Below are positions 20,154-57,525 of a stretch of 64,000 nucleotides of DNA, piece by piece. The position numbers and the translations under genes are program-made. Below the pieces are notes generated by a model, which ran no database searches, was not told the DNA's origin, and saw nothing but the letters and a program-made list of their open reading frames with translations. The stretch comes from Candidatus Poribacteria bacterium (GTDB lineage Bacteria; Poribacteria; WGA-4E; WGA-3G): the NCBI GenBank assembly GCA_022823085.1, contig JAJDXV010000098.1, positions 8,828-72,827 of the forward strand. Direction: 5' to 3'. Numbering within the stretch: the stretch's first letter is position 1; each line of letters opens with the position of its first letter.

Positions 20154-20191
20154 ATAATTAAGGACACAATTTTGCGGTGGAAAGGGTGCAG
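20154..20191 (-). promoter_or_regulatory. Conserved promoter-like motif, copy 1 (minus strand CTGCACCCTTTCCACCGCAAAATTGTGTCCTTAATTAT)
   Basis: One of 8 same-orientation copies; lies upstream of the small peptide gene. Confidence 0.5.
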
Positions 20192-20214
20192 AGTCGGAAG
20201 AAAAATCAAAAGGA

Positions 20215-21360
20215 TCAGAGGATTTGACTGATATCGACATCCCTGAGAAAAGAATGAACCATTCCCTTGGCGAGAAAGTTCACCAGTGCCCCTGCAACAA
20301 TCATGAAAGCAAAGGGGATCTTTTCTTGAATGAGCAAACTATTTCCAAACTTCAGAAAGCAGCCTTGCTCAGCAAGTCGCTGCAAGTCTGCTATTTGCGC
20401 CTGTGTCAATCCTTCGGAGGAAACATCGACGACAATATTATCTGCTGCTGGATTTGCAAAACCGACTGGGACCTTTACATGTATATCGGTTGCGTGTGGG
20501 CCTGGCATCCTGAGGATGCGTTCTGCGGGGATCATGTTAGGTTTAAGGGCTTTGATGGGTGTTGGCTTTGTAAACAAGGAACGGACGTAAGAACTGAATA
20601 TGAGTAGGCACAACGAAATTAGAAAAATATAGAAGATTAAACTCCCAAGGTCGATCAGCGATCGAATCAGTAAAAATATTGCCAGCGGGACAAAGAGCAT
20701 ATCAAATGCAAGTTGATACTTCTCTGGGATATGCCTTCTAACGCCCTTATTGAAGGCGAAGGCGATCATTACAAACAGGGCAAGTCGAAGGGCGAAGTCT
20801 AGCTCTATGCCGAGCCGTGATGGTATGTAAAAAGCCAATCCACCGACCGTTATATATGAAAACACTTCAAGGATGCGTCTCGGAAATTGTTTCAGTTGCA
20901 TCCGAAAACTTTCCGAAATTAATTGCTGCTGTAGCCGCAACGGCATTTTGTAAACTGCTTTCACAGTGACATAGATAAAAAACAGCAAAAAAATATTAGT
21001 CAGCAAAATCAACGGATAAAACTGCGTCTCTACAGTTTGGCTGAAGGCACTTGGGGGCATCAGTAAGATGATACCCCAAAACAATTTCGCATCTCCCGCT
21101 GCCCATATTCCTGTGTAAAACATCGCGAACGAGATCCCGAATCCGCCCAAAACGGTTGCGCAACTGTGAGCCCAGGTTATCTCACCTGCGGTTATGAAAA
21201 GTGCTTGACTGATACCGCCGAGAGCGATCAAAGTTAGGGTGTAGCTATTGGCAATTTTCCCATAGCGGAAATCGGTATAGCCTGTATAGAGCCCACAACT
21301 GAGGATCGCCAAGAATATTAGGTTTTCGTGTGTCAGAAGTTCAAAAATATTGATGTCCAT
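20215..21360 (-). CDS. Polytopic membrane protein with an A24 (prepilin/TadV-type) aspartic peptidase-like N-terminal half and an extra C-terminal domain
   Basis: ...YTGYTDFRYGKIANSYT... and ...GIWAAGDAKLFWGIILLMP... match the two Asp motifs of A24 peptidases. About 10 TM segments. The C-terminal ~110-aa soluble insert (MIPAERILRMPG...LTQAQIADLQRLAEQGCF) is shared with 33679..34815. Confidence 0.6.
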   Translation of the reverse strand: MDINIFELLTHENLIFLAILSCGLYTGYTDFRYGKIANSYTLTLIALGGISQALFITAGEITWAHSCATVLGGFGISFAMFYTGIWAAGDAKLFWGIILLMPPSAFSQTVETQFYPLILLTNIFLLFFIYVTVKAVYKMPLRLQQQLISESFRMQLKQFPRRILEVFSYITVGGLAFYIPSRLGIELDFALRLALFVMIAFAFNKGVRRHIPEKYQLAFDMLFVPLAIFLLIRSLIDLGSLIFYIFLISLCLLIFSSYVRSLFTKPTPIKALKPNMIPAERILRMPGPHATDIHVKVPVGFANPAADNIVVDVSSEGLTQAQIADLQRLAEQGCFLKFGNSLLIQEKIPFAFMIVAGALVNFLAKGMVHSFLRDVDISQIL

Positions 21361-21469
21361 ATCTGTGGGTATACTCCGTGATAATGAATGTTAAAAATTG
21401 TAAACATATTTTTAACTGTTTTGATTGAAGGTCGCTCCTACAAGGAGTGTTCTGGTTCGAGGTTCGTTC

Positions 21470-22861
21470 TTATTTAATCCATTGCATGGTTTCTCGGAGT
21501 TTTTCCTTGGCTTGTGCGTAATCTCGGCGTGTCTGATAGTAGACGCGTTGTGCCTCTGTAAATTGCGCCTGCGCTTGAAAGGCATCGTTGTAGGTCAGAC
21601 CTTGATAGCCGGGGATTTCGACGGTGACTTCATCCAGGACGCGCTCAATCGTCCGCAGCTGCTGCTCGAAAATTCTCACCCGCTTTTCTTCAATCTCCAT
21701 CCGTTCTCTCGCATTCGCCACCTCACGATAGTCACGTCGCACCTCTACGCGGATTGACTTCGTTTTCTCAATGTACTCCAACTGCATTCGCTCGAGTTCT
21801 GCGACTTCTCGGGAGCGAAGGTTCTTCGTCTTATTCCCATCGTATAACGGGATGTTGAACTTAAAACCCAGTTCCCATCCGTCTTGGGTGCGTGGATTTG
21901 TCTCAAAGAGACTCGCCCCATCTCGTTCACGGTCGAGTATCACCGGGTCATAGATGGCTTTTGCGTCCCACGTCTGGTTCCCTGCCTGTTGCTCCAGGAG
22001 TACACTGAGATCCTTATAGCGTGCTTCGGCAGTGAGTTCAGGGAAGCGACTCCAGAGGGTCTCTCCGGCGAGACGTTCTTGACGCAGCATATCGCCTTGT
22101 AAATCGCGTAGGTCAAGACTGTTTACGATTGCGAGTTCAACGGCAGCTTCGAGCGTCACATCGTCGTCTGGAAGCGGTCGTGAAAGCACAACTTGTGTGA
22201 GTGGGTCAAGTCCAGTGAGACTGATGAGTTCAGCGGTGTCTACGTCGAGTTGTCGTTGGAGTTCATTGAGTGCAAGTTGCTGTTCTGAGAGTTCCAATTC
22301 TGTATTGAGTTGGCGAAGGAAGGGGATCCGCCTTTGGGTCTGCTCAATTTTTGTGCCTTCCAGTTTTTTTTCGAGTTCCACTGCAATGGCACCGCGTTCT
22401 TTAATCTCTTCTTGTGTGAGGATAATATTATGCCAGAGATTCCGGGTAGCGTAGACGATCTCCTTCTTGGCGCGTTCGTATTCAATCTCGGCTTTGCGGA
22501 CCTCTTCCTGTGCGTCATCAAGACCTCGGGGGATCTCCCCGAATTGCGCAAAGAGCATGCTCATCTGTGCGCGCGTGAGATAGTCTCTATCATCAATGTC
22601 GCCATCTTTTTGGCGTTGATATTCACCAGTGAGTCCTACCTGTGGTAGGTAAACGGCTTTCGACACACGAAGGTTGGCTTTTGCGCGTTCAACGACTTTC
22701 TCTGCTTTTTTGACCGTCTCGTTGTTTTGCAAAGCGAGTTCTATTGCGCGTTTTGGCTGAAGCGAAACGAGTCGCTGTGCTGAAACGGTGCCCGAAAGGT
22801 ACAAACTTATAGTTTGTGCGACAAGCAGATACACCGCAAGTGGGGTCAACCTTTTGTTCAT
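21470..22861 (-). CDS. TolC-family outer-membrane efflux protein
   Basis: Signal peptide, then two long coiled/beta repeats typical of OEP family proteins (LQNNETVKKAEKVVERAKANLRVSKAVYLPQV...). Confidence 0.7.
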   Translation of the reverse strand: MNKRLTPLAVYLLVAQTISLYLSGTVSAQRLVSLQPKRAIELALQNNETVKKAEKVVERAKANLRVSKAVYLPQVGLTGEYQRQKDGDIDDRDYLTRAQMSMLFAQFGEIPRGLDDAQEEVRKAEIEYERAKKEIVYATRNLWHNIILTQEEIKERGAIAVELEKKLEGTKIEQTQRRIPFLRQLNTELELSEQQLALNELQRQLDVDTAELISLTGLDPLTQVVLSRPLPDDDVTLEAAVELAIVNSLDLRDLQGDMLRQERLAGETLWSRFPELTAEARYKDLSVLLEQQAGNQTWDAKAIYDPVILDRERDGASLFETNPRTQDGWELGFKFNIPLYDGNKTKNLRSREVAELERMQLEYIEKTKSIRVEVRRDYREVANARERMEIEEKRVRIFEQQLRTIERVLDEVTVEIPGYQGLTYNDAFQAQAQFTEAQRVYYQTRRDYAQAKEKLRETMQWIK

Positions 22862-25315: not shown

Positions 25316-26050
25316 TTATGCGGCGGTATCTGCTTTGGGTGTGTATCCGGCGACGTACTGGAGATACAACGCCTCAAGGTTTTCTTTCAGGATTTCCTCG
25401 CGTGTGAGTTCCAGTTCGAGATTGCCTTGGACGAGAATACCGATGGTGTCGGCGATCTCCTTGGCGCGGAAGATGTCGTGTGTGGACATGAAGATGGAGG
25501 TGCCTTCCTCTTTGAGCTCACGCAGCAGATTCAGGAAATCCGCACCGCCTTTGGGGTCTAAGCCGGAGGTCGGCTCATCAAGTAGGACGGCTTTTGCGTT
25601 CTTCATAATTGTAATGGCGATACCGAGGCGTTGACGCATCCCTTTGGAGAAGGTTTTGACGCGTCGCGTAAACGCGGCTTCAGGTAATCCGACGCGTCCG
25701 AGTGTAGCATCGAGTTCTGCATTTGATACACTTTTGCGTCCGCCGAGTTTGGCGAAGAAGGAGAGGTTCTGCCGCGCTGTGAAGTTGCGATAGAGTTCTA
25801 CGTTTTCTGAGACGTAAGCGAGGTGCTTCTTCGCCTCGAGCGGAAACTTCGGGATTTCGATATCGTTTACGAATGCAGTGCCGCTTGTCGGCTCAATGAA
25901 GTTCAGGAGCATGGACATGGTCGTGCTCTTTCCAGCCCCGTTGCCACCGAGAACGACATAGATTTCGCCGTCTTCTACTTTCAGGTTGAGTTTGTTGACG
26001 GCTAAAACGTTTTCGTTGTAAACTTTCGTGAGGTCACGGGTTTTTAACAT
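25316..26050 (-). CDS. ABC transporter ATP-binding protein
   Basis: Walker A GGNGAGKSTT, signature FSKGMRQRLG, Walker B VLLDEPTSGLD. Confidence 0.9.
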   Translation of the reverse strand: MLKTRDLTKVYNENVLAVNKLNLKVEDGEIYVVLGGNGAGKSTTMSMLLNFIEPTSGTAFVNDIEIPKFPLEAKKHLAYVSENVELYRNFTARQNLSFFAKLGGRKSVSNAELDATLGRVGLPEAAFTRRVKTFSKGMRQRLGIAITIMKNAKAVLLDEPTSGLDPKGGADFLNLLRELKEEGTSIFMSTHDIFRAKEIADTIGILVQGNLELELTREEILKENLEALYLQYVAGYTPKADTAA

Positions 26051-26137: not shown

Positions 26138-26175
26138 ATAATTAAAGACACAATTTTGCGGTGGAAAGGGTGCAG
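26138..26175 (-). promoter_or_regulatory. Conserved promoter-like motif, copy 2
   Basis: Minus strand CTGCACCCTTTCCACCGCAAAATTGTGTCTTTAATTAT, ~85 nt upstream of the ABC ATPase start. Confidence 0.5.
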
Positions 26176-26516: not shown

Positions 26517-26996
26517 TCAACAGGGTATTTTGTTGTGTTTGGTGGGAGGAAGTTTGAGAGGCTCCTTAATACGTCTGGCTTCATCAGGCGGAAACGCTTT
26601 ATACATCGAAGCCGGTTTATGCGTATTGAGATTATCGCAAACGAGAATAATCTTTTCAGCCACCGGGAAATGAACATCTATTAAGTCTCGACAGATATGC
26701 GCAAAATCAACAGCCGTGCGTTTGTCAGTAACTTCGACATGCCGAAATCCCTGAAGGGGTGCGAAAATCATAAACAAATTGCTGACGCCATTGCGTCGAT
26801 ATTCCGAATCATATCGACGTGGCAGCCCTTCAACAATAGGGAGAGGCTGCCGGGTTTCTTGAAGCTGTTGTTTACTTGTTTCATCAACGCAGACGACAGG
26901 AGCCGTGGCATCTTCAGGACGTTGATAGATTTCTAAGACATCTTCCATTGCAGCAACAAACTCCGCTGAGGCTACGGATTGGTGTGGATGGGACAA
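26517..26996 (-). pseudogene. IS630-family transposase fragment (DDE domain, truncated at both ends)
   Basis: VVCVDETSKQQL...YRRNGVSNLF...ILVCDNLNTHK is the DDE_3 pattern. There is no HTH N-terminus, no proper ATG, and the C-terminus is missing. Confidence 0.6.
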
Positions 26997-27608
26997 TTAA
27001 TCTTGTTGGTCCTCACCGGCTTGGCGCAAATCTGAGGCGAGTTTCTCAAGTTCAGATGCGACTTTTTTTACGTCAACATCTACGCCTTGAAGGACGAGTT
27101 GATAACAGAGGTCTTCCCACTTTTGCCCTCGCGCCCAGGCTATTTTACAGATCGCCAGCCAAATATCAGCACCAAGGGGTAGCAGGAGTTCTTGGATTTT
27201 ATCAAAACGGACACCTGCCAGAATACGTAGGGTCTCTCTAAGTGACTGACCCTCTTTAAGAACGAGATTAACAACCTTGCGACATTCCTTTGCAGTGAGT
27301 GCCTTGGTCTCTGTAACAGCGATAGCTAATAACCATTGGTCTTCTTCCCGCTTAAGTCTGGCGATTTGATAGCCTTGTTCAATACTGATTTTCCCCTCAT
27401 CAATTTTCCACCGGATGCCGCCTGGCAGTCCGAAGATGCGATGTCGCACAATCCAGAACTTGTCGGATCTCCCTATTTCTTGTGTGATGGCTTGATAGGT
27501 GCCGAAAGCCTGATATAAGACATCAACAGCGTCTGCAATTTCAGAGGGTTTTCTCTTCCCAGGTACATCTATAATGTTTTTCGCGGTTTTTAAATCCATC
27601 TGTCTCAC
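26997..27608 (-). CDS. ParB-like HTH DNA-binding protein (no ParB N-terminal domain)
   Basis: ITQEIGRSDKFWIVRHRIFGLPGGIRWKIDEGKISIEQGYQIARLKREEDQWLLAIAV...LTAKECRKVV resembles the ParB/Spo0J HTH region. Confidence 0.35.
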   Translation of the reverse strand: MRQMDLKTAKNIIDVPGKRKPSEIADAVDVLYQAFGTYQAITQEIGRSDKFWIVRHRIFGLPGGIRWKIDEGKISIEQGYQIARLKREEDQWLLAIAVTETKALTAKECRKVVNLVLKEGQSLRETLRILAGVRFDKIQELLLPLGADIWLAICKIAWARGQKWEDLCYQLVLQGVDVDVKKVASELEKLASDLRQAGEDQQD

Positions 27609-27940: not shown

Positions 27941-30865
27941 CTAATATACTGGCTCAAGGGATATATGGAACAGCCCGCGCCGCTGGGTAACACCATAGAG
28001 CTTATTGTTTAGGATAGCAAGAGATGTAACGTCCTCTGGAATGCCTTCTGAGGAAATCTGTTTCCATTGCCCATGAGTCTCCAAGCGATAAACGCCTGTC
28101 TCTCCGGCACCATAGACCGTGGCACCCTCCACAGCCAATTGGTTTATGACGGTCGGCTTATTGACTGTATCTGCTATCACTTGCCAATATTCACCGGTCG
28201 CCGAAATGAGGACACCCTTGTCTGTTGCGACGTAAACCGTGGATCCTGCAAAAACTATCTCTTTGAAGCGAGTAAAGCGGAGGGGTAGGGTAGGTGTGAC
28301 ATCTCTCCAACTGTTTCCGGCATCAATCGACTGGAAAAGTTTCCCATCGCGTTTTCCAACATAGACGGTTTCTCCTGAAACAGCTAATTCAAATCCTTTT
28401 CCCCAGCTGTCATCAGGCGCTTCACCAGCATCTAACAATCCTGTGTATGTCCATTGGGGATCTCCAAGTTTCCATTTGAAGAGCCCCCGCTTGTATTCCA
28501 CGTAGAAGACATCGCGACTGATTGTAAGCGTGTCTTCTCTCATTTGTGCTTCAGTATAGTGTGATAGAATTTCAGATAAGGGAGCGGATTGAGTTCCTTG
28601 ACTCCCTTTCTTTAACTCAGATGGTAATGCTCCACTATCCAGTGTCGGTATGTCTTGAATCCGGATAAACATGTTCCCGTCTGCAGATAATCCGAAAATT
28701 TGTGGATCACTTTTAGTATCAAAAGTAAAATAAAGTATGTCCCCTGCAACCAGCAGTTCCGCGCCAGTACTATTGGGAGCAATATGACCTAGCTTGCTCT
28801 CATATTTACTAATCTCATGATTACCCATCATCTGAATAGTTTTCCAAGACACACCCCCATCAACGGATTGAAAAACTTCATGGCCATTATATGCGTATAA
28901 TCTATTGTTGAAGGCAACCAAACTCCTTATCCGTGTTCCCAGAATCCCATTCATAAAGAGCTCCCACGACTTGCCGGCATCGGTTGTCCGATGGATGCCA
29001 AATCCGCCGACCTTGTAAAAGGTCTTTTCATCCACCGCCACAGATGGAATATAATGGTGCAAAAAAGCCATTGGGTCGACCCCAAGATTTGTCCAATTTT
29101 TCCCGCCATCTGTGGAATGAAAGTGGGTAGCCCCCAATGCTAAGAGCGTTTCACCGGCGGCCAAAACCGTTATACCTGCGGGTATCACCATTGGGTAAAG
29201 GTTGTTTTTAGGTGTTATATCGTTCCATGATGTGCCTAAGTCAGCGGAGTAGTAAAGTCTGGATATATGCTGTGGGTCCCGCCTGAATGTATGGTACTTA
29301 TTCAGTACGGGCGGGGACAAACGAAATAGGTCGGGTCCCATTCCAACATAGAGCCCCTTTTGAAACACCGTCAAGGAGTAGACAGCATCTGTGCCTACGG
29401 GCAATGGCTCCCATCTCCCTGAATCAAGACGGTAGAGTCCCTGGTTTGTGCCAGCAAACAGCGTGTCTTCAACGGCATCCAGTGCGGTCATCCTTTCACC
29501 GACAAGTCCATCGTTGAGAGGGTTCCATTGCATGCCGGCATCTGCAGATCGGAAAATCCCTTTATCTCTGAGAGCGAGATACATTGTCTGCGTGCGGTCT
29601 GCCTGTCGGGTCTGGGTAATGATGAATCCGACAGCGCGCCCTGTTGGCCGCGGGCAAAATGGGTGCCATGTCTCTCCATCATCGGTTGAAGCGAATATCT
29701 TGTCAGTGGATACGATATAAAGCGTACCGTGATGTTCTGCAGTCGGCATCAAGACATCGGTTGGAATAGCGGCGTTGAGGCGTGTCCATGCAGTGGCATC
29801 TGATGTGAGTTTATACATCCCTGTTAGAGACATAGCGTAGACATTGCCTTGAGATGTCGTAAAAATATCGCGGACCATCCCGCCTGGGGGGCCATATCCT
29901 TGCGTCCACTGCGCGTTAGAAAAATCGAGTTTATCTTCTTGTCCGTTGGCTCTTAGAGTTACCTCAGAAATCTGCGCGCCCGTGCCGCTGCTTTTGCCGG
30001 GGGCGGCGGCTCTTCCCAACTGCCTTCGGGTGCTTGGTTTTGATACAAAGTCAAGGACGATCGGTGCTTTAACGATCTCCACCTTCGGTTCAGAATGTGC
30101 CTCGAAACTATAAGGTCTCTGAAATCGGGCAAGATAGTGGTTCCCAACACCGAGCATCAAGACAATCACAGCAGTCGCAGCACCCAAAGCCGCCCATGGG
30201 ACCAATGGCTTTCCGTTTCCAGGAGGGGCTGTTGGGTTAATGTCGGCAACTTCCCGCATGACGCGCGCTGTCAAATCAGTGGAGAGTTGCACGCCACCGA
30301 GCATTTCACGAACTAAGGGTTCTGACTGTTGTAAACGCTCTCGTCCGCGGCGAAGTCGGCTTTTAATTGTGTTCACCGACACACCTAAGTACTTACCAAT
30401 TTCCTTTGCCGTCATTTCCCCGAGATAGTAGAGTGTTACGACGGTTCGCTCACTCTCTGGCAGGACTTCAAGAAGCTCTTTGACGACTTCAGAGCGGTTT
30501 TCAGCTGCTGCTGCTTGGCGTTTTTCGGTCATATAGTGTTTGTAAGAAGATTCCTCTATCTCTTCCACAGGTGTGTCCTCCAACGATTCCATCGTAGGTT
30601 TACGCCTTTGAATCCAATTCAGCGAGAGTCGACTCGCGATGACATACAACCACCCAGAGAAATGCTTCGGGTCTTTCAGTGTTGCGAGTTTTTTGTAAGC
30701 CTGGATGAAAGTATCTTGGGCAACCTCTTCGGCATGATGGAAATCCCCAATTTTCCGCCAGACAAGCGCATGGATCCCCTTTTGATGCCTTTCGACTAAG
30801 GTGGCGAATGCCGAGTCATCGCCCGACAAAACTCTCCGAATCAACTGAACGTCGTTTTCTAACAT
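27941..30865 (-). CDS. ECF sigma factor fused through one TM helix to a large BNR/Asp-box (sortilin/Ycf48-like) beta-propeller region
   Basis: Sigma regions 2 and 4 (HHAEEVAQDTFIQAYKKL..., YYLGEMTAKEIGKYLGVSVNTIKSRLRRGR). TM helix WAALGAATAVIVLMLGV. Repeated S/T-x-D-x-G-x-x-W boxes (STDDGETW, SADAGMQW, SADLGTSW, STDGGKNW, TTDAGKSW, SVDGGVSW, SIDAGNSW). ATG at 30865 lies behind GGAGGA. Confidence 0.75.
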   Translation of the reverse strand: MLENDVQLIRRVLSGDDSAFATLVERHQKGIHALVWRKIGDFHHAEEVAQDTFIQAYKKLATLKDPKHFSGWLYVIASRLSLNWIQRRKPTMESLEDTPVEEIEESSYKHYMTEKRQAAAAENRSEVVKELLEVLPESERTVVTLYYLGEMTAKEIGKYLGVSVNTIKSRLRRGRERLQQSEPLVREMLGGVQLSTDLTARVMREVADINPTAPPGNGKPLVPWAALGAATAVIVLMLGVGNHYLARFQRPYSFEAHSEPKVEIVKAPIVLDFVSKPSTRRQLGRAAAPGKSSGTGAQISEVTLRANGQEDKLDFSNAQWTQGYGPPGGMVRDIFTTSQGNVYAMSLTGMYKLTSDATAWTRLNAAIPTDVLMPTAEHHGTLYIVSTDKIFASTDDGETWHPFCPRPTGRAVGFIITQTRQADRTQTMYLALRDKGIFRSADAGMQWNPLNDGLVGERMTALDAVEDTLFAGTNQGLYRLDSGRWEPLPVGTDAVYSLTVFQKGLYVGMGPDLFRLSPPVLNKYHTFRRDPQHISRLYYSADLGTSWNDITPKNNLYPMVIPAGITVLAAGETLLALGATHFHSTDGGKNWTNLGVDPMAFLHHYIPSVAVDEKTFYKVGGFGIHRTTDAGKSWELFMNGILGTRIRSLVAFNNRLYAYNGHEVFQSVDGGVSWKTIQMMGNHEISKYESKLGHIAPNSTGAELLVAGDILYFTFDTKSDPQIFGLSADGNMFIRIQDIPTLDSGALPSELKKGSQGTQSAPLSEILSHYTEAQMREDTLTISRDVFYVEYKRGLFKWKLGDPQWTYTGLLDAGEAPDDSWGKGFELAVSGETVYVGKRDGKLFQSIDAGNSWRDVTPTLPLRFTRFKEIVFAGSTVYVATDKGVLISATGEYWQVIADTVNKPTVINQLAVEGATVYGAGETGVYRLETHGQWKQISSEGIPEDVTSLAILNNKLYGVTQRRGLFHISLEPVY

Positions 30866-31039
30866 TAGAGTCCTCCATAGTAAATAAATGGATCCGCGCA
30901 ACGGATCAAATATTAGATGAGCACGAATGCAAAATATGCAAGGTCTCCGAAAATGCCGCTGTCCGACAAGGAGTATACCAAATGTGCGGGATTATGAGGA
31001 ATGTTTTAAATTTAAAGCACTCTTCTGCAATCTTACTCT

Positions 31040-31077
31040 ATAATTAATGACACAATTTTGGCGTAGAAAGGGTGCAG
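31040..31077 (-). promoter_or_regulatory. Conserved promoter-like motif, copy 3
   Basis: Minus strand CTGCACCCTTTCTACGCCAAAATTGTGTCATTAATTAT, upstream of the sigma-fusion gene. Confidence 0.45.
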
Positions 31078-31772: not shown

Positions 31773-33644
31773 TCATTGACAAGCTGTTCCGCTGGTTTGC
31801 TTTAGCAAGTGCGTAACTTGAAATCGGTGATTGTCTACCAAAAGGGTTGGTGAAGCCTTAATGTCCAGTGCCGCGGCACGCTGGATGTTTTCTCGGAAGC
31901 GATGCTCGGTTTCTGGCGTGGCAAACAACCGCTGAATCCTTTCAACATCGATACCGAGTTTCTCCGCGCAGTCTTCCCAGGTCTTGTCCAATTTTTTGCC
32001 GCGACATAAGATGTAGTCGAGATACCGGTGCGGGTATTCTTCCGCGATGAGGAGCTGCCGGATGTTTTCAGCGACTTCAGGGTAACCGTGTAGGCTCACA
32101 AATGGCGTTATATCCTGCGGCGAAGGGTTCTCCTTCTCAGCTGCGATAAACCGGAGCTTGAAGTCGATTTGGTCGCCAAACTTTTTCACGATTGGAATAA
32201 TCTGCTCTTCCGCCTGAACACCGAAAGGGCAGTAGCTCATTACAAATAGTTCCAAAGTGGGTTTGCCCATGCGTGCGATGCGAGACCTCAAGAGTGCCTC
32301 CAAATTCATCGGCGCGCCGCTGTGGTCTATATCCTTGGTATGGAGTGCTACGACCTCAGCAAACCCGGGTGAATGTTTTGTATCGTGGCATTCTAAACAG
32401 GCAGTCGTATCGGCACCGTTGCGGATGTTCGTTTTCTTAGGATTGCCGATATGGTGTTTACCGGGCCCGTGGCAGGTTTCACATTGCACACCTTTGAGGG
32501 TTAGGTCGGGGTCACCTATCTGAAAGCCGGTTGGGTAACCAAACCCCGTGGTGTGGCAGGAGACACACCCTGCATCGAAGTGGCGTTGCTTTTTCAGAAG
32601 CGTTTGAAAGGCGAAGGCATGTCGCGTTGTGGACCACTGGCGATATTCTTGTTGGTGACACTTCCGACACGCTGTCGCTGAGACGTATCCGTTTTGCCCA
32701 TCTTCTTCCAAGTGTTGCCCAGCGAAAAGCCGGGGCAGCGGAGCTGGCTGCCCGACAACTTGATAGAAATCGGTGAGGAGTTGACGCACGGATTCAGATT
32801 CGGGGACATCCCCGGTGAGGGCGACTTGTGTGGCATAATGGTGGTCGAGTCCTCCGTTTGGGTGTATCCAGAGTGCTAAGACTCCGAGTGTTTTACCTTC
32901 CGGCTGGCAGCCGACAGAAAGTGTCCCGTTCTTAGTTCTCACGGTGTGGATGTTCTCTGGCTGAATGAGAATATCAATGTACTTGGAGACCTCAGCGTTG
33001 CCGATCCCGACGATAATATCGGCTTGGGCTCTAATGTGTTGGGTTGCCTCTCCGGCGACCAAAGCAACACTATGTGGTCCGACTTGCTGAATAAGGAAGG
33101 GTTGAGTGAAATCGTTTGCCGTGGCAGCCAAGAATGGAAATGCCGCGGCAGCGTGTTGCTGCTTCAGATAGCCATCGTCATAGGAAAGATCGGTTTCACT
33201 CAAGGCGAGGGCGGTGTATTGCATCATCGCCATTGCTTTGAGGTTAACACTGCACCGCTGCGCATCCATCTTTTCTGTGCCATCAAAAATGTTTCCTGCG
33301 TCTACCAAGAGTGTCGGGAATCCGTGGTGTCGAATTTGCTCGACGATGTGGGCGCGCCTGGGCAGTCCGCCCGATTGTTCTTGATAACACCCGCAGGGCT
33401 CGAGATGGCTTTTAGTGCCCCCGGTATGCAAGATGAGGAGAGAAGGCGGTTTGTCGTTTCTGAGTGCTGAGAGAATATCCTCTAAGCGTTCTCCTAAAAC
33501 GGGGCGCGCTTGTTGCTTGACCCGTTCTATCTGGCGGCGTCTTTGAGATTCCGACCACTGCGTGTAGAGGGGTGGTAATGTTACACTTACGGTTAAAAAC
33601 ACTAAAACAAAGATCGCACGTTTCATAAAAACGGACCGAATCAA
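31773..33644 (-). CDS. Exported three-part fusion: metallophosphatase/5'-nucleotidase-like N-domain, tetrahaem c-type cytochrome region, thioredoxin-fold (DsbA-like) C-domain
   Basis: Signal MKRAIFVLVFLTVSV. LILHTGGTKSHLEPCGC...GGLPRRA. Four CxxCH motifs (CRKCH, CVSCH, CETCH, CLECH). LELFVMSYCPFGVQAEEQIIPIVKKFG...SPTLLVDN. Confidence 0.6.
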   Translation of the reverse strand: MIRSVFMKRAIFVLVFLTVSVTLPPLYTQWSESQRRRQIERVKQQARPVLGERLEDILSALRNDKPPSLLILHTGGTKSHLEPCGCYQEQSGGLPRRAHIVEQIRHHGFPTLLVDAGNIFDGTEKMDAQRCSVNLKAMAMMQYTALALSETDLSYDDGYLKQQHAAAAFPFLAATANDFTQPFLIQQVGPHSVALVAGEATQHIRAQADIIVGIGNAEVSKYIDILIQPENIHTVRTKNGTLSVGCQPEGKTLGVLALWIHPNGGLDHHYATQVALTGDVPESESVRQLLTDFYQVVGQPAPLPRLFAGQHLEEDGQNGYVSATACRKCHQQEYRQWSTTRHAFAFQTLLKKQRHFDAGCVSCHTTGFGYPTGFQIGDPDLTLKGVQCETCHGPGKHHIGNPKKTNIRNGADTTACLECHDTKHSPGFAEVVALHTKDIDHSGAPMNLEALLRSRIARMGKPTLELFVMSYCPFGVQAEEQIIPIVKKFGDQIDFKLRFIAAEKENPSPQDITPFVSLHGYPEVAENIRQLLIAEEYPHRYLDYILCRGKKLDKTWEDCAEKLGIDVERIQRLFATPETEHRFRENIQRAAALDIKASPTLLVDNHRFQVTHLLKQTSGTACQ

Positions 33645-36520: not shown

Positions 36521-38266
36521 TCAGGCGGTTGCCTGGATTAAGCCACAAACCCTTTTGAGGATTGCCTTTGCCTCGGTTTCGTCCTCGACCACGGCGGTAA
36601 GGAGTGCTTCGGCTTCCCTTGCTGTGTGATTTTTCAAAATGCTCAGTACAAGCCCATCTTCAACACGTAGGGGATATGCTGCATCCCGGATCAGACAACG
36701 CTCATAATGCTCATTCATTCCTAATACAAGAGACTTATACCCGATTTTCTGTTTTCCTTGATGGGTTGGTTCGATACCGTGTAAACCGTGGACTGCCTCC
36801 GGGGGTGTGGGTGCGAACACATTGAGGAGTCTATTTGGACTGACGAGTTGTCTTTTCTGATGAAGCCCTTCAAATAATTGGATAATCCGATGTGCGGTTT
36901 TCTCCCAGGTAAAGGAGCGTGCCCGTTCTCTGGCTTTTTTGGAAAGGGATTGCCGGAGTTGATCATTGGTGAACAGCAAGTTAATTTTCTCCGAAAAATC
37001 GAGGGGCGAAGGGTAACTGACAAACGTTGCGATATCCTGGTGAAAGTTCTCGGCATCGGCGATCAAGCCCGCCTCGCCGACGACTGATGGCACGCCATCA
37101 AAATTGGGAACGACAGGCGGCACACCACACGCCATGGCTTCAAGGACAGTGAGACCGAAGGTCTCTTCCCCTGACATTGACAGGAAACAATACACATCAA
37201 AGGCGTTGTAGACCCGCGGCAATGCTTCACGGGGATGGAAACCGGCGTAGACGAGATTGTTGGGGAGATCTCTTGAAGCATATCTTCCGAGACTGGGCCC
37301 TGCGATTAAAAATAAGAGGTGTGGATTCAATTCAGCGAGTTTCAAGTAGACCGAGGCACCTTTTTCAGACTCTACTCGAGAAAGGTAGCCAACGGTTGGG
37401 GTTGTTAGGATGCGATCGTCTCCAAGGTGTTCAGCGAGTGCTTGTTTGGCTTTTTGTTTCTCCATTGGGCGGAACAAAGCCGAGTCTACACCGTTGGGGA
37501 GGGTGTTGAAGAAACTGGTGTCCCAGACATAATCGGCATAGAACTCACGGACATAATCAGAGGGGGCGGTGAAAGCATCGAAATCCCGCATTGCAGCATA
37601 ATGCCGGAGCATGGAATTGATTGCATCGCCACCATGTCCACGGGGTGCATGACACTGAACAAGGATCGGTGGGAGCTCAACATGCTGATACAGCGGTAAG
37701 AGCCATGTCTCATGGTCGCGATGTAAGGTGAGGATGCCGAAATAGGTGGCGTTGAGACGCCGGCTGAGTCGTCCAAAGTCAGCCACACTGATATCTACTT
37801 CATAGACATTATCGGCTAACTTTCGATTTCGGGTGCCAGCAAAATGCAGGTCTACATATTTGGTGAGATGTTCAAACATGTAAGAAAGTGCCATGTTGGT
37901 GCCGGCGGATAACGTTTCAATATCAAAGAAGGAATCTACAGGGATGCCGGGGATCACAACAAGTAACTTGCGCCGCTCGTTTTCCAAGGCGCGGGTTTTT
38001 GTGAGATTCTCACCGCGATTGAATAGCAAGCCTTCTTTTTCGAGTGCTTCAAAGCTTTGAAACGCTTCAAAAATATCGTCCGCTGTATAAGAAGTTTTCA
38101 GTGTTTGGAGGATCCACTCACGCGTGTGGGTTTCGGCGAGTTTTAAGATGTCGACCATCACAGCGGAAAGTTCAATGACACTGGCTTTCTCAAGGTCTGC
38201 GGCATAAAACGCAGCATCTTCTTCAAACAAGTAATGCTTATGTAAAGTTCTGGGAAAATCAAACAA
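36521..38266 (-). CDS. GT4-family glycosyltransferase with an N-terminal PqqD/RRE-like domain
   Basis: LHKHYLFEEDAAFYAADLEKASVIELSAVMVDILKLAETHTREWILQTL...ALEKEGLLF. EETFGLTVLEAMACGVPPVVP. Tail VEDGLVLSILKNHTAREAEALLTAVV. Confidence 0.7.
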   Translation of the reverse strand: MFDFPRTLHKHYLFEEDAAFYAADLEKASVIELSAVMVDILKLAETHTREWILQTLKTSYTADDIFEAFQSFEALEKEGLLFNRGENLTKTRALENERRKLLVVIPGIPVDSFFDIETLSAGTNMALSYMFEHLTKYVDLHFAGTRNRKLADNVYEVDISVADFGRLSRRLNATYFGILTLHRDHETWLLPLYQHVELPPILVQCHAPRGHGGDAINSMLRHYAAMRDFDAFTAPSDYVREFYADYVWDTSFFNTLPNGVDSALFRPMEKQKAKQALAEHLGDDRILTTPTVGYLSRVESEKGASVYLKLAELNPHLLFLIAGPSLGRYASRDLPNNLVYAGFHPREALPRVYNAFDVYCFLSMSGEETFGLTVLEAMACGVPPVVPNFDGVPSVVGEAGLIADAENFHQDIATFVSYPSPLDFSEKINLLFTNDQLRQSLSKKARERARSFTWEKTAHRIIQLFEGLHQKRQLVSPNRLLNVFAPTPPEAVHGLHGIEPTHQGKQKIGYKSLVLGMNEHYERCLIRDAAYPLRVEDGLVLSILKNHTAREAEALLTAVVEDETEAKAILKRVCGLIQATA

Positions 38267-38307
38267 GGTTTTTTCTCACCTTTCTATTGTTCACTAAGAG
38301 TGCTTTC

Positions 38308-38345
38308 AAAATTAAGGACACAATTTTCGGGGCAAAAAGGTGCAT
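38308..38345 (-). promoter_or_regulatory. Conserved promoter-like motif, copy 4
   Basis: Minus strand ATGCACCTTTTTGCCCCGAAAATTGTGTCCTTAATTTT, ~45 nt upstream of the GT start at 38266. Confidence 0.5.
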
Positions 38346-38396
38346 GATTTGAAAAAAATATGCGAACAGAATAGATCTAAAATGCATCCAGCCTTC

Positions 38397-38434
38397 AAAA
38401 TTAAGGACACAATTTTCGGGGCAAAAAGGTGCAT
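38397..38434 (-). promoter_or_regulatory. Conserved promoter-like motif, copy 5 (89-bp tandem duplicate of copy 4)
   Basis: Identical to copy 4 and part of a direct duplication of ~38304-38362. Confidence 0.45.
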
Positions 38435-39165
38435 GATTTGAAAAAAATATGCTGCTACCTTCGGCTAAAATATGGCTCAAATCCCTGAAATAGCAGGATT
38501 ATAGACGGACTTTATCTTTAAAAATTACATGATTTGAAAAAAATATGCGAACGTAGGATGGGACAATCGGATTGAAATTGTTATGTTTTTGATATTCAAA
38601 AACACATATTTATGCTGAAAAATTTGGATATAATATGCGAACTTGACACACCTCGAATCCCGGTAGCGGTCGTGGAATGTATTACTGACAAACACTTACA
38701 AGGAGCTCCCGCCTGCCCGAGTTTGTCCAACAAGCCGACATCACAGCCGTCCAGGAATCTCTGATTTCCCTCATTTTTTTTACGATACCCTCAAATCCTT
38801 TCACCAAAGCCCCTATAACGTCCGCAGAAGGACATCGCAGTGGAGATTCGCCGATTGTTATCTGTCCTTCCTGTAGCCCACAGATGCATAGATAGGGGTA
38901 TTCTCTAAAGGATCCCTCCTCTTTTTTCTGTTCTTCTTGTTAAACAGCAAAAATCAGTGGCTTTTCTGCCTTAAGAAGGGCCCCGTTTGCCTGCCTGTTT
39001 TTTAACAATTTTAATATATACTTTTAAATGTTTTAAGGGTGCTACCAACCCACGCCACATCTGACTTCCCAGACTTTAAGATGAGTATTTATGGTATGAA
39101 AGGTGAGTATTAATATTGGCAAAACTTTCCTTTATGATAGAATTTACTTAAGGAGGGTATCTCTC

Positions 39166-39285
39166 ATGAATTTAGCGAAAATTAATGAAGTTGTTAAGGC
39201 GAGCCCTGCTATCCAGATTCAGAGTAAGATTTCCCTTTTCCAGCGGCGTGCTTGGAATGTGTTGCTGGCGAATGCCTATAAAATC
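39166..39285 (+). pseudogene. Rep gene remnant (first ~39 codons) with an adjacent ori-like AT-rich remnant
   Basis: MNLAKINEVVKASPAIQIQSKISLFQRRAWNVLLANAYK, after which similarity to Rep is lost. The upstream 38990-39060 is the reverse-oriented copy of the conserved GGTGGCACCCTTAAAACATTTAAAAGTATATATTAAAAT segment. Confidence 0.75.
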
Positions 39286-39503
39286 AAAACTATGCGCTTA
39301 TCAAGGAAGCCACAAGTTAGAAAAAAAGACGCTAAAAGCAGCGATATTGCTTCACACGACGAATCAGTTCAATATAGATTAATGAGTTTGCGATGCTGTC
39401 CTGACATATATCAGGGGCTGCCAATCGCGAGAAGAGTTATAGAAAAATGGACTCATAATCCATACACTAAGGCACTGAATGCATTTGATGATTGATGCCT
39501 TTC

Positions 39504-39542
39504 ATAATATAAGGACACAATTTTTTGACGGAAAGGGTGCAA
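39504..39542 (-). promoter_or_regulatory. Conserved promoter-like motif, copy 6
   Basis: Minus strand CTTGCACCCTTTCCGTCAAAAAATTGTGTCCTTATATTAT. It lies downstream of the lasso-cluster operon end and faces the rep remnant. Confidence 0.35.
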
Positions 39543-39814: not shown

Positions 39815-41296
39815 TTATTTCTCTCGCAGTCCCTCTTCCCAGCGGAACTGCGTCTCTCGCCTTGCGCCGAGACTCTGAAGTTTTTCAGTTATCCGCATTG
39901 TTTGTTCAATGAGAAGGGCCTCGCATCCGATCGTTTCAACGTTGAGTCGTAACAAGGGTTCGGTGTTCGACTCTCGGAGATTGAACCGCCAACGGGTGGG
40001 TTTCAAACCCTTATGAACACATGAGTGGAAATCTGGGAGAAATCTGACAGATAGACCGTCAACTGGTGTTTCAAGACAGGGGCGGTTCCCCCAAGCGTCT
40101 ATTGTTTTTTGGACGACATCCATAGCATCTCGCATCTGAGAGCGGGTTTCAAAGGAAAAGTTAATCTCACCGGAAACGGGGTATGCTGCTCGGAAGGGGT
40201 CTACAGCTTCAGCGAGGGACTTTCCACTTTCGTTGAGGTATTCAAGGACGAGTAGAAACGGGATCATGCCATTATCGGTATGGAAATTATCTTTGAAGTA
40301 ATAGTGTCCGCTCGCCTCTCCTGCGAACAAGGCCCCGGTTTTTTGCATACGGGTTTTGATAAACGAATGCCCACATCGGTTGAGAATCGGTGTCCCATTT
40401 GCGGTGACAACGGCGTTTTCTACCGCCCATACGGCTCTTGGATCAAAGATGACAGCACCCTTTTCTTGTTCCCGGAGGCATTTTTCAGCGAGCAGTGCCG
40501 TAATATAGCAGCCCTCAACGAACATTCCATTTTCATCGAAGAAAAAACATCTGTCGGCATCAGCATCCCATGCCACTGCTAAATCTGCACCCTTCCGCTT
40601 AACTGCCGCCGTGGTTAATTTACGATTCTCCGGTCTGAGTGGGTCGGGTCTGCCTGCCGGGATCTGGGAGAATGTTCCATCGGGTTGCGTAAATAACCGT
40701 TCACAGATTTCGATGGGTGTCTCGGCTAACAAGCGGTTAGCGACCTGTCCAGCAAGTCCGTTATTGGCGTTGATGACAATGCGCCTGTTAGATAACTCCT
40801 CGGCGTTTACAAACGAGCGAAGGTGTTCCAAATAGACATCTAAAAACGAAACAGATTCAAGGGTGCCGCTACGGTGGGTATTTCCGTTTAGAGATAAAGT
40901 TTTCCTTTCAAGGATATCGCGAAGATCGAGAAGCCCTGTATTCGCGGATAGCGGTGCGGCATGCTGACGGACGAGTTTCATGCCGTTATATGCCGCTGGA
41001 TTGTGAGATGCCGAGATGATAATACCTCCGTCTGTCTGGTAGTGGACTACAGCGAAATAGAGCATATCCGTAGAGATCCGACCGAGATTGAGAACATCAA
41101 CACCAGCGTCAAGGAGTCCCTCGGCGACTTGCTGGTAGAGCTGGAAAGAACTCTCGCGGACATCGTGTCCCAAGGCGACGGTTTTAGGTTGAAAGCGCGC
41201 TGCATACGCACGGGCGATTTGATAGAAATCCTCGGGTTGGAAATCGACACCAAAAATACCCCGAATATCATACGCCTGGAAGATGTCACGGTTCAT
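39815..41296 (-). CDS. Phosphomannomutase/phosphoglucomutase
   Basis: MNRDIFQAYDIRGIFG..., active-site ISASHNPAAYNGMK, ...GEASGHYYF. The start is set at the ATG overlapping the upstream stop (TAATG) rather than the longer ORF. Confidence 0.85.
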   Translation of the reverse strand: MNRDIFQAYDIRGIFGVDFQPEDFYQIARAYAARFQPKTVALGHDVRESSFQLYQQVAEGLLDAGVDVLNLGRISTDMLYFAVVHYQTDGGIIISASHNPAAYNGMKLVRQHAAPLSANTGLLDLRDILERKTLSLNGNTHRSGTLESVSFLDVYLEHLRSFVNAEELSNRRIVINANNGLAGQVANRLLAETPIEICERLFTQPDGTFSQIPAGRPDPLRPENRKLTTAAVKRKGADLAVAWDADADRCFFFDENGMFVEGCYITALLAEKCLREQEKGAVIFDPRAVWAVENAVVTANGTPILNRCGHSFIKTRMQKTGALFAGEASGHYYFKDNFHTDNGMIPFLLVLEYLNESGKSLAEAVDPFRAAYPVSGEINFSFETRSQMRDAMDVVQKTIDAWGNRPCLETPVDGLSVRFLPDFHSCVHKGLKPTRWRFNLRESNTEPLLRLNVETIGCEALLIEQTMRITEKLQSLGARRETQFRWEEGLREK

Positions 41297-52038: not shown

Positions 52039-52058
52039 ACTTTTAACCCTCCTCGAAC

Positions 52059-55298: not shown

Positions 55299-55370
55299 TC
55301 GTTTTCACCTCCTTTCATATATTAATTTAGACACTCGACTGAAAAGTCGCATTCCACTCGTTACTGAGTG

Positions 55371-55511
55371 TTAACAGTTATGGTTTCTACGAGTACATGA
55401 GCCATCATAGAGTGGGCTTCCACCACTTTTTACGAGCACCGTGGCGTTGCCGTAACTGACTAACCGGGGTGCTTCGTAGGTTTTCTTTTCAGGCTTCAGC
55501 ATCTTACGCAT
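55371..55511 (-). CDS. Lasso precursor peptide C
   Basis: Identical RBS and leader DNA to B. MRKMLKPEKKTYEAPRLVSYGNATVLVK/SGGSPLYDGSCTRRNHNC. Confidence 0.75.
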   Translation of the reverse strand: MRKMLKPEKKTYEAPRLVSYGNATVLVKSGGSPLYDGSCTRRNHNC

Positions 55512-55581
55512 CGTTTTCACCTCCTTTCATATATTAATTTAGATATGCGACGAAAAGGTCGCAAACCACTTATTAGAAACA

Positions 55582-55709
55582 TTAGGTGTTATTCCGAGCA
55601 CTTGATTCATACTGAACAATGCCAGAGCCTTTGATTAACGCGGTAGCATTGCCGTAGCTAACTGAGATACTTGATAGTCTTTCTTTGTTGACTTTAACAT
55701 CTTACGCAT
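55582..55709 (-). pseudogene. Decayed lasso precursor copy D
   Basis: No RBS. MRKMLKSTKKDYQVSQL, then a 4-nt deletion relative to its siblings. The shifted frame still reads YGNATALIK/GSGIVQYESSARNNT*. Confidence 0.65.
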
Positions 55710-55776
55710 TTTTTCTTTTTTCAAACTTTAATTTGCAAACATGACTGAAAAATCGAAAAACACTCGCTACCGAGTA

Positions 55777-55917
55777 TTAGTAATTAGAGTTTTTGCGAGT
55801 ACCTCCGCAATCAAGATTTTTGGTTCCACCATTTTTTATGAGCACCATGGCATTGCCGTAGCTGACCAACTGAGGTGTTTCGTAGGTTTTCTTTCCAGAT
55901 ATGAACATCTTACGCAT
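55777..55917 (-). CDS. Lasso precursor peptide E
   Basis: AAAGGA RBS. MRKMFISGKKTYETPQLVSYGNAMVLIK/NGGTKNLDCGGTRKNSNY. Confidence 0.7.
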   Translation of the reverse strand: MRKMFISGKKTYETPQLVSYGNAMVLIKNGGTKNLDCGGTRKNSNY

Positions 55918-56015
55918 TGTTTCTCACATCCTTTCATATCTAATTTAAAACTTGTTTGCGGTGTTAGGATCTGCGATCTACCTATTACAAACATTACTGA
56001 CACGGCTTGCTTTCT

Positions 56016-56053
56016 ATACTTAAGGACACAATTTCAGATTGAAAAGGATGCAG
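56016..56053 (-). promoter_or_regulatory. Conserved promoter-like motif, copy 7
   Basis: Minus strand CTGCATCCTTTTCAATCTGAAATTGTGTCCTTAAGTAT, ~100 nt upstream of precursor E. Confidence 0.5.
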
Positions 56054-56090
56054 AAGCAGATACCACCTACAACCCAAAGACCTTTTATTC

Positions 56091-56798
56091 CTATACGCTC
56101 CTCAAAGCTTCAAAATCGGCGTTAAAGAAGTTGCTGGATTCATAGGAGAGTGGGTGCCCAACGGATTTCACTTCTTGAATCTGTATTTCTATACCATAAT
56201 CTATCATCCGCTGGAGGGCATTTGTGAGCTGATATTTTCCATTTCGGAGGTGTCCTGCCTGAATCAACTCATCCAGACACGCAAAGAGCAATTTGCTTTC
56301 TCGAATGAAATAACATCCTGCAATCACTAAGTCTGTCCGTCTCGGTTTATGAATTAAGCATCCAACGATGCCATCTCTGAGTTCGACTAAACCGTAAGGT
56401 TTCTCATCAACGATACGCCGGACAGCAATTGTTGAGCACTGACTTTGCGTAAACGCTGTCCAGTTCAGATTTACGCCTGCTTCCGCCTCGACGATGAGCA
56501 GCGGTTCCTCAGAGATATGATTACTGGCTAACGAAATCGAGTGCCCTAATCCTTTTTCTTCCGTCTGTTCAATGAAAGAAGCCGTCATCTCACTATAGTT
56601 AGCCTCCATATAGGCTTGAATCGGGTTGGTTGGATAATCGGTGATAAATATAAACTCAGACACCGGCAGTTTGCACAAGGGTTGAATCAAATGTGTAAGA
56701 GTCGGGCGCCCCTTGTATTGAGGTAGCGGGTCAGAGATCCGATCTGTATGTGGTACGAACGGCGATGTGTTTTCTGTAAATGGAAAGATTACTTTCAT
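56091..56798 (-). CDS. Sugar-phosphate nucleotidyltransferase-like protein
   Basis: ...KGRPTLTHLIQPL...EKGLGHSISLA...EKPYGLVEL.DG.V..LIHKP...VIAGCYF...GKYQLTNALQRMIDYG... (NTP_transferase pattern). Confidence 0.55.
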   Translation of the reverse strand: MKVIFPFTENTSPFVPHTDRISDPLPQYKGRPTLTHLIQPLCKLPVSEFIFITDYPTNPIQAYMEANYSEMTASFIEQTEEKGLGHSISLASNHISEEPLLIVEAEAGVNLNWTAFTQSQCSTIAVRRIVDEKPYGLVELRDGIVGCLIHKPRRTDLVIAGCYFIRESKLLFACLDELIQAGHLRNGKYQLTNALQRMIDYGIEIQIQEVKSVGHPLSYESSNFFNADFEALRSV

Positions 56799-56821
56799 AG
56801 TTCACCTCATCTAGGTGCGGC

Positions 56822-57451
56822 TTACGCGCCTCCACGACACTTAAGAGTTTCATACTGAAGATAAGGTTGCAGCTTATCGCGGAGTTTCCGGTGTGCTTGA
56901 TATAAGTGGGTTTTAATGGTTCCTTCGGCCTTGCTCAAGCGCGAGGCAATCTCTTTTATCTTGAGTCCATCTTGGTAGCGGAGATTAAAAACGCGACGTT
57001 GGATGGGGGATAATCGACGCACGGCCACGCTCAAGAGGTGGTTGAATTCCTCCTTTTCAAGGATTTCATCGGGCGATGCGTGCGTCCCATCAATTTGAAG
57101 CCCATCCGCTACGGTCTCGGGTAACTCTGCGACTCCAAAAACGATTTCTCGCTTTTGTCTGCGGAGGAAATCAAGGCTACAATTGATAGCAATTCGGTGG
57201 AGCCAACTGTAAAATGCGGCACCTCTTCTAAAATTCGGTAGTGCCTGCCAGGCCTTAAGGAATACTTCTTGACAGAGATCTTCTGCTGTTTCAGAGTGGC
57301 GAACCCGCTTGTAAATCAAATTATAGATTCTTTGTTGGTATCTACACACAATTGGATTAAACGCCTGTGTATCGCCATTCTGGGTCCGCTGAATGAGCTC
57401 GGTGTCACTTAGAGCGTTGAACGAGTCACGCGTCGTTAATACCTCTTTCAT
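56822..57451 (-). CDS. ECF-type sigma-70 family factor
   Basis: From ATG 57451 (AAGGAG RBS): ...FNPIVCRYQQRIYNLIYKRVRHSETAEDLCQEVFLKAWQAL... (region 2) and ...LRYQDGLKIKEIASRLSKAEGTIKTHLYQAHRKLR (region 4). Confidence 0.85.
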   Translation of the reverse strand: MKEVLTTRDSFNALSDTELIQRTQNGDTQAFNPIVCRYQQRIYNLIYKRVRHSETAEDLCQEVFLKAWQALPNFRRGAAFYSWLHRIAINCSLDFLRRQKREIVFGVAELPETVADGLQIDGTHASPDEILEKEEFNHLLSVAVRRLSPIQRRVFNLRYQDGLKIKEIASRLSKAEGTIKTHLYQAHRKLRDKLQPYLQYETLKCRGGA

Positions 57452-57487
57452 GTTTTGCTCCTTAGATGATGCTATTCTTATCCTTTT

Positions 57488-57525
57488 ATAATTAATGACA
57501 CAATCTTGAAGGGAAAAGGGTGCAT
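57488..57525 (-). promoter_or_regulatory. Conserved promoter-like motif, copy 8
   Basis: Minus strand ATGCACCCTTTTCCCTTCAAGATTGTGTCATTAATTAT, ~40 nt upstream of the ECF sigma start. Confidence 0.5.

Follow-up and report, generated by a model that had tools for sequence, protein, structure and literature searches.

What is the short motif that recurs eight times on one strand of this DNA, and which protein reads it? The window, by which the whole 64,000-nt stretch under analysis is meant, belongs to the metagenome-assembled genome (MAG) of a Candidatus Poribacteria bacterium (5.2 Mb in 181 contigs; window C61:8828-72827). The motif is predicted, with a probability of roughly 0.8, to be a promoter class that depends on group 4, or extracytoplasmic function (ECF), sigma factors and is autoregulated by them. 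Its copies in the window are given below, where each distance runs from the motif's 3' end to the first start codon that follows on the minus strand, and the bracketed coordinate is the start of the TGCA block.

20154-20191, minus strand: copy 1 (TGCA at 20190; matrix score 57.7), 85 or 103 nt before a small precursor peptide gene (19851-20069), which is followed by a glycosyltransferase (GT) gene of the GT4 type (18001-19752)
26138-26175, minus strand: copy 2 (26174), 88 nt before an ATP-binding cassette (ABC) ATPase gene (25316-26050), followed by genes for a 758-aa protein, an OEP/TolC-like protein and a second A24-like protein
31040-31077, minus strand: copy 3 (31076; score 59.5, the top site of the whole genome), 139 nt (TTG) or 175 nt (ATG at 30865) before a gene for a sigma-transmembrane (TM)-propeller fusion, of which it is the probable autoregulatory promoter
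38308-38345, minus strand: copy 4 (38344), 42 nt before the GT-581 gene (36521-38266), as its predicted proximal promoter
38397-38434, minus strand: copy 5 (38433), 131 nt before the same gene; it duplicates copy 4 in tandem, with 98% identity over 62 nt and a spacing of 89 nt
39504-39542, minus strand: copy 6 (39541), weakened (TTATATTAT, score 37.4), with no coding gene for about 1 kb downstream
56016-56053, minus strand: copy 7 (56052), with TGCATC, 99 nt before the first of the lasso precursor genes (55777-55917)
57488-57525, minus strand: copy 8 (57524), 37 nt before the gene for a 209-aa ECF sigma factor (56822-57451), followed by a nucleotidyltransferase gene (56091-56798)

A pattern search with the invariant right-hand block ATAATTAAKGACACAATYT, allowing two mismatches, returned seven of these copies (20154, 26138, 31040, 38308, 38397, 56016 and 57488); the matches are read on the plus strand, which places the motif itself on the minus strand. 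The same block gave no match in 100 dinucleotide-preserving shuffles. Copy 6 carries a two-base change, TTATATTAT instead of TTAATTAT, and was recovered by a relaxed pattern and by a matrix scan, so that all eight copies of the original prediction were found where it had placed them. On the minus strand they have the form TGCA(C/T)C-(C/T)TTT...AA(A/G)ATTGTGTC-n-TTA..., in which TGCA(C/T)C and a T-tract are followed by a variable stretch of about nine bases, then by an A-tract and TTGTGTC, which a single free base separates from TTAAT(T)AT. The window variant can be written as TGCACCCTTT-N9-AAAATTGTGTCnTTAAT. Counted from the T of TGCA, the G of GTC stands at an offset of 25 nt in the eight copies, all of which have the pentamer GTGTC in the -10 position.

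Two conserved blocks at a fixed spacing, with a TGCA-to-GTC offset of 24-25 nt, correspond to the layout of an ECF promoter. The (aATTA)TGCA(C/A)C sequence with its T-tract would be the -35 element, read by sigma region 4, and AAAAT-(T)G(T/C)(G/A)TC-n-TTAAT would supply the -10 element and, with it, the region of melting and initiation, both recognised by sigma region 2. The start point would probably fall in the purine-rich bases immediately after TTAATTAT.

Seven copies lie 37-175 nt upstream of minus-strand start codons with good Shine-Dalgarno sequences, and both ECF sigma genes are among the genes so preceded, as had been proposed. The common minus orientation is true of all eight copies, but it merely mirrors the orientation of the island genes, since the minus strand holds essentially all genes between 18 kb and 57.5 kb. 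Copy 6 had been described as facing a rep remnant; it would indeed transcribe antisense to the open reading frame (ORF) at 39103-39495 (plus strand, 130 aa, with a strong Shine-Dalgarno sequence), but this ORF has no Pfam match. Copy 6 is proposed to be either an orphan promoter or a source of read-through into the GT array.

The evidence that connects the motif to a sigma factor comes from the gene behind copy 3 and its relatives.

27941-30865, minus strand: sigma-TM-propeller gene, encoding an ECF sigma factor (sigma2 and sigma4), one TM helix and a BNR/Sortilin-type propeller region of about 700 aa

The 986-aa protein is matched in Pfam by Sigma70_r2, r4_2 and Sigma70_ECF, and TIGR02937 scores 100.4 bits against a cut-off of 42.9, which places it in the ECF superfamily. 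The best solved match to the sigma domain is SigW (E = 5e-26), also its closest named relative, and the domain falls below the NCBIfam equivalog cut-offs for SigW (ECF30-like; 119.5 vs 209 bits and 109.3 vs 243.1 bits). The TM helix lies at residues ~222-240 when counted from the ATG at 30865, equal to ~234-252 of the 986-aa ORF. In the ~25-40 residues between sigma4 and the helix, Pfam identified neither a FecR-like nor a zinc-finger anti-sigma domain. tblastn analysis with the first 318 residues identified 33 paralogues in the genome (45-63% identity), 25 of which have a single hydrophobic helix at residues ~220-240; the BNR/Sortilin region follows the helix. About 27 of the 33 are preceded within 330 nt by a site of the form aATTATGCA(A/C)C-N18-(C/T)GTC, mostly 28-120 nt from the start codon, and the other paralogues are located inside operons. 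The bases after GTC fall into classes, namely nTTAAT, which is that of the window, ACTATA and ACTTAAGT.

The same association is found in other genomes. With the sigma-domain alignment as query, more than 580 stretches of the species collection were found to encode relatives, and the best 80 of these all come from Poribacteria MAGs or sponge-type MAGs. The family has 19-79 copies per genome in the same genus and 0-10 in other families of the order. The motif is present 100-234 nt upstream of all 11 closest homologues of the window sigma, which come from eight other genomes, are 69-74% identical to it in the region compared and are presumed to be orthologues. When their upstream regions are aligned, the motif stands out as a conserved block between flanks that have diverged beyond recognition. 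Across the wider family, about 45 of 75 loci in other Poribacteria MAGs reach scores that only one of 150 control stretches matches. Taken with the paralogues, these counts give good support to the first of the two earlier readings, an autoregulated ECF-type promoter. The sites of putative target genes are retained as well: a GTGTC-type site lies 50 or 150 nt upstream of the seven closest GT-581 homologues (7/7; 77-82% identical, five other genomes), and in a further genome, where the island is syntenic, the small ECF gene has kept the motif. Promoter and targets are therefore both conserved.

Over 79 different sites, TGCA is conserved at 94-100%, the T-tract (+7 to +9) at 87-96%, the A-tract before the -10 element at 77-92%, TC at 100% and TTAA at 87-97%. 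This profile bears on the second reading offered in the original prediction, a promoter of the housekeeping type (TTTCCA-N17-TAATTA) with an upstream element. Sigma-A would then be the reader, and TGCAC would bind an activator or the alpha subunit. TAATTAT is A/T-rich and stands at a plausible place for a -10 hexamer, and many copies have a T-rich stretch upstream, yet the supposed -35 positions are unconserved whereas TGCA and TC are almost invariant. A scan of 18001-58000 for the sigma-70 consensus (at least 9 of 12 matches to TTGACA/TATAAT, spacing 16-18 nt) retrieved none of the eight copies. The probable sigma-A promoters of this genome are of another kind, TGGTATAAT (extended -10 type) or TGGTATACT, and form separate second promoters downstream of the motif; what accompanies the motif is the sigma family and not an activator gene. 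A housekeeping promoter is decidedly unlikely on these grounds. Two further promoter types were rejected: a sigma-54 reading of TGCAC...TGC, because by eye the -24 GG is missing and TGC is absent from most copies, and a Bacteroidetes-type promoter (TTTG / TAnnTTTG), which gave no match in what is a Poribacterium.

It is also conceivable that the sites are not recognised by a sigma factor but are operators at which a DNA-binding repressor or activator coordinates the sigma paralogues and their neighbours. The conserved stretch, at about 45 nt, is longer than a minimal promoter, and some copies have a weak inverted symmetry, CCTTTC...GAAAGG. This symmetry is missing from most sites in this genome and in others, the fixed 24-25 nt offset between two invariant cores is typical of -35/-10 pairs, and no conserved regulator gene other than the sigmas lies beside the sites. 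An operator is thus very unlikely, and an ECF promoter remains the preferred reading.

A two-block matrix scan of the genome found 38 sites, about 30 of them outside the window, usually in the form aATTATGCACC(C/T)TTT...AAAAT.G.(G/A)TC.TTAAT.AT. Although 83% of the genome bases fall in ORFs of at least 150 aa, 37 of the 38 sites are intergenic, and the remaining one lies within an artefactual upstream extension of the 209-aa sigma ORF. The sites are oriented toward downstream genes. Nine of the ORFs that follow them are paralogues of the window sigma fusion; other genes in this position code for secreted propeller proteins of the WD40 and PD40 kinds, for MacB/FtsX, an ABC-2 permease and a MoxR ATPase, and for GT-581 paralogues. 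The motif is consequently not confined to the island. The suggestion that it joins the two glyco-peptide cassettes, the export genes and the lasso cluster into one regulon holds in part only: the same kind of site heads all of them, but about 30 others lie elsewhere and paralogous sigmas, 12 in number, share this promoter class.

Such dispersal could also be expected of a repetitive extragenic palindromic (REP) element, a miniature inverted-repeat transposable element (MITE) or another mobile sequence with no promoter role, particularly as there are many copies, near-identical pairs (copies 1 and 2, which are almost identical over 45 nt, spacer included) and tandem arrays. The distribution contradicts this, with a single orientation relative to downstream genes and an intergenic position throughout but for one site. 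The spacer varies while the two cores are fixed, the motif is kept at orthologous positions in other species, and RNA folding z-scores of -1.8 to +0.9 indicate no hairpin potential. A dispersed repeat is extremely unlikely. The folding scores also ruled out an RNA element or attenuator.

With an ECF promoter as the preferred reading, the next question is which sigma factor recognises the window copies. Maximum-likelihood analysis of the sigma domains places the window sigma in a clade of 12 members (support 98/99). All seven promoter-bearing members have GTCnTTAA, and other sigma clades have GTCACTATA or GTCACTTAAGT. Of the five members with no promoter of their own, three (C90_1961, C126 and C15_12876) follow closely behind motif-driven first genes, which encode an ABC-2 permease or a PD40 protein, and C90_6091 follows a motif-driven gene at a distance of about 1 kb; the fifth, C176, starts 263 nt from a contig end, so its upstream DNA is cut off. 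The -10 pentamer (GTGTC, GTATC, TCGTC or GCGTC) requires 24 changes on a tree of 74 sigmas, compared with 44.7 when the labels are shuffled, and none of 200 shuffles was as low as 24. GTGTC is found in 5/5 members of the window sigma's orthogroup. Its presence throughout the window copies and at the GT-581 orthologue sites fits a cognate sigma-promoter pair.

The second sigma gene of the window offers another candidate.

56822-57451, minus strand: stand-alone ECF sigma factor of 209 aa

If this protein read the motif, it would autoregulate itself from copy 8 and the fusion sigmas would be targets and not readers. Copy 8 does stand directly before its gene, and the motif also precedes a number of related genes, paralogues and orthologues alike (about 6 of 17 loci, and contig C159 of this genome in addition). 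The tie to the fusion family is far more regular (~27/33 paralogues, 11/11 orthologues and about 60% of loci in other MAGs). The 209-aa sigma is only about 27% identical to the fusion family, and it is a less likely reader because most of its close relatives lack the motif, with sigma-A-like signals instead, and because the motif variants follow the fusion-sigma phylogeny. We consider it unlikely that the 209-aa protein is the reader. The 986-aa fusion is the most likely candidate for the autoregulated sigma, and the 209-aa protein looks like a target, probably of a second tier. For the window copies as a set, the balance tips slightly towards the 986-aa sigma as their reader.

Several observations weigh against these assignments. 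The element TGCA(A/C)C-N18-(C/T)GTC is, depending on where its cores are delimited, about 1-2 nt longer than the N16-17 of SigW, SigX and SigM promoters, which makes the assignment of the -35 and -10 elements inexact. Only 64% of the 79 sites have the G of GTC (31% have A), which leaves TC-n-TTAA as the invariant core. For copy 6 there is no obvious gene that it could drive. Joint inheritance of gene and promoter would equally give a clustering of variants on the sigma tree. Finally, 12 paralogues belong to the TTAA class and at least three other sigmas in the genome stand behind GTGTC promoters; with the class common to paralogous sigmas, the window copies are not assignable to a single one from sequence alone, and naming the 986-aa protein is an inference.

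The following circuit is proposed. The cognate readers would be Poribacteria-specific and strongly expanded one-polypeptide sensors that combine an ECF sigma, a membrane helix and a propeller outside the cell, and the GTGTC-n-TTAAT variant would belong to one clade of them, with the 986-aa protein as its likeliest reader. Activation would presumably consist of proteolytic release of the sigma domain, or the sigma may act from the membrane. Once active, it would transcribe its own gene, giving positive feedback above a basal sigma-A promoter, along with the two peptide/glycosyltransferase/A24-peptidase cassettes, the ABC/TolC-like export operon, the lasso-peptide operon and the second, stand-alone ECF sigma. 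The basal promoter has a candidate between copy 3 and the sigma gene.

30972-30986, minus strand: probable second promoter of the sigma gene, of the sigma-A extended -10 type, CACATTTGGTATACT, conserved in several orthologues and similar to TGnTATAAT

Alignment of the 11 homologous upstream regions showed a weaker conserved block, CATATTTGGTATACT, about 70 nt downstream of the motif. The CACATTTGGTATACT / CATATTTGGTATACT block is probably an extended -10 sigma-A promoter that would provide basal expression.

Copies 5 and 4 together precede the cassette composed of GT-581, GT-469, an A24-like membrane protein and a multihaem cytochrome/DsbA protein. The last of these, a 623-aa protein (31773-33644, minus strand), has multihaem cytochrome c554/c3-type motifs and a DsbA-like thioredoxin domain, an odd companion for a peptide-glycosylation operon. 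The pair at 38308 and 38397 had been counted as two separate copies; both are real, but they are members of an array of four ~90-nt units, two intact and two decayed, that was delimited by a repeat finder (38302-38642, minus strand). Tandem Repeats Finder reported nothing for 38200-38700.

38520-38642, minus strand: two decayed ~90-nt repeat units of the same promoter array, the -35 part of the third unit being TGTAATTTTT

Tandem duplicates of the motif have a period of 82-96 nt, and independent pairs are also found before a GT paralogue (contig C149:301/385) and upstream of sigma orthologues in three other genomes (loci L003, L004 and L006). Recurrent promoter duplication may tune expression.

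Copy 7 heads a long co-directional run that ends at 39815. Its first part encodes the lasso precursors, a GT4 enzyme, a PqqD-like B1 protein, a transglutaminase-like B2 protein, an Asn-synthetase-like cyclase and a GT28 enzyme; the rest encodes a PRMT-like methyltransferase, two ABC exporters, MacB/FtsX and sugar-nucleotide enzymes. A terminator-like hairpin (55759-55778, minus strand) lies immediately 3' of the first lasso precursor gene and may be an attenuator by which the proportions of precursor and enzyme transcripts are set.

The island is both flanked and interrupted by mobile-element debris. Transposase remnants (26517-27608, minus strand), composed of a DDE_3 ORF and an upstream helix-turn-helix ORF, separate the sigma gene from the export operon, and a fragment of an rve integrase core (57943-58341, minus strand) is located just upstream of copy 8. 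Just outside the island, a 594-aa protein (59723-61507, plus strand) features an N-terminal RNA-recognition motif (RRM_1) and a RAMP-superfamily domain, an unusual combination.

Two other repeated sequences were observed in the genome. An element of about 110 nt with inverted-repeat ends, GGACTTACGCAT...ATGCGTAAGTCC, is located between motif and gene at C159:3300-3430 and at C151, the latter upstream of the sigma at 5070, and it looks like a small MITE inserted in 5' leaders. A second repeat class (C140:30654, C63:62879, C74:22653, C8:8852, C64:15856 and C57:14727) has GTGTC-n-(A/C)TTAATTAT in common with the motif, without TGCAC, and continues with ...CCACTATAA; a GC-rich palindrome, GGGGCGAGG..CCTCGCCCC, stands ahead of four of its six copies.

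As a principle of regulation, an ECF sigma that activates itself through a shared promoter is textbook knowledge and well known in kind. What is of interest is the context, namely an undescribed and greatly expanded sensor family in uncultivated sponge symbionts that apparently controls natural-product clusters. In the window, a membrane sensor is probably induced together with three gene sets for peptide natural products and with the exporters of these. For an uncultivated phylum the motif provides a sequence-only handle on gene regulation, as it marks the operons of sigma-sensor circuits, and the compact pairs of promoter and sigma domain could be used to switch on silent clusters in a heterologous host or as orthogonal genetic switches. 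A broader and more speculative possibility is that the dozens of membrane-tethered sigma sensors in each Poribacteria genome form a receptor repertoire, insulated into channels by their -10 differences (GTGTC, GTATC, TCGTC, GCGTC; TTAAT vs ACTATA). The window would then hold one complete channel, in which a propeller sensor outside the cell, perhaps glycan-binding, directly turns on the glycosylated ribosomal peptides and a lasso peptide along with their exporters and a second-tier sigma. If true, this would be a sensor-to-natural-product circuit in a sponge symbiont that is legible from sequence alone.

Among known promoters, those of the SigW/RpoE type are the closest in layout, with AAC and a T-tract followed by CGT/TC and an A/T-rich stretch. 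In Bacillus subtilis, SigW, SigM and SigX promoters have tGAAAC-nTTT ... CGTA/CGTC, and the E. coli RpoE promoter is GGAACTT-N16-TCAAA. The Poribacteria element likewise has a -35 that ends in A(A/C)C before a T-tract and a -10 of (C)GTC/TC before an A/T-rich stretch, and it also stands ahead of genes for envelope and export functions as well as of the gene of the sigma itself. It differs from the SigW class in its N18 spacer, which with the cores delimited in this way is about 2 nt longer, in a -35 of TGCA(C/A)C and not TGAAAC, and in the long conserved TTAAT(T/A)AT after the -10. A further difference is that the Poribacteria sigma carries membrane anchor and sensor in the same polypeptide, with no separate anti-sigma.

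A functional parallel is MibX, the cluster-situated ECF sigma of the microbisporicin (lantibiotic) cluster, the promoters of which (GAACC-N15-GCTAC) head its own gene and most cluster operons in a feed-forward switch (PMC4973701). MibX is an actinobacterial protein held by a separate anti-sigma, MibW, and the precursor operon is under another regulator (PMC4973701). The two systems are alike in placing one ECF promoter, predicted here, before most operons of a ribosomal-peptide cluster. Unlike that of MibX, the Poribacteria motif, which is of another sequence, stands directly before precursor genes and is used elsewhere in the genome too.

The architecture of the sigma protein itself has precedents in the fused membrane-spanning sigmas, which include IutY of Pseudomonas putida (ECF243), SCO4117 (ECF52) and the planctomycetal ECF57 proteins with WD40-like extensions (PMC8999054). 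For IutY, release through regulated proteolysis is the accepted model (PMC8999054). A literature search of limited reach found no description of the Poribacteria ECF sigma family. As in IutY, ECF52 and ECF57, a single polypeptide unites an ECF sigma, a TM segment and an extracytoplasmic or repeat-rich C-terminal domain, with no separate anti-sigma gene. The IutY type is further defined by a FecR-like anti-sigma domain, a partner TonB-dependent transducer and release by Prc/RseP; the Poribacteria fusion has no Pfam match to FecR or to an anti-sigma domain, and no TonB-dependent receptor was found among the neighbour genes scanned. It also departs from IutY, ECF52 and ECF57 in its outside domain, a BNR/Sortilin-type double propeller, and in the size of its family, which in this genus reaches dozens of copies per genome.

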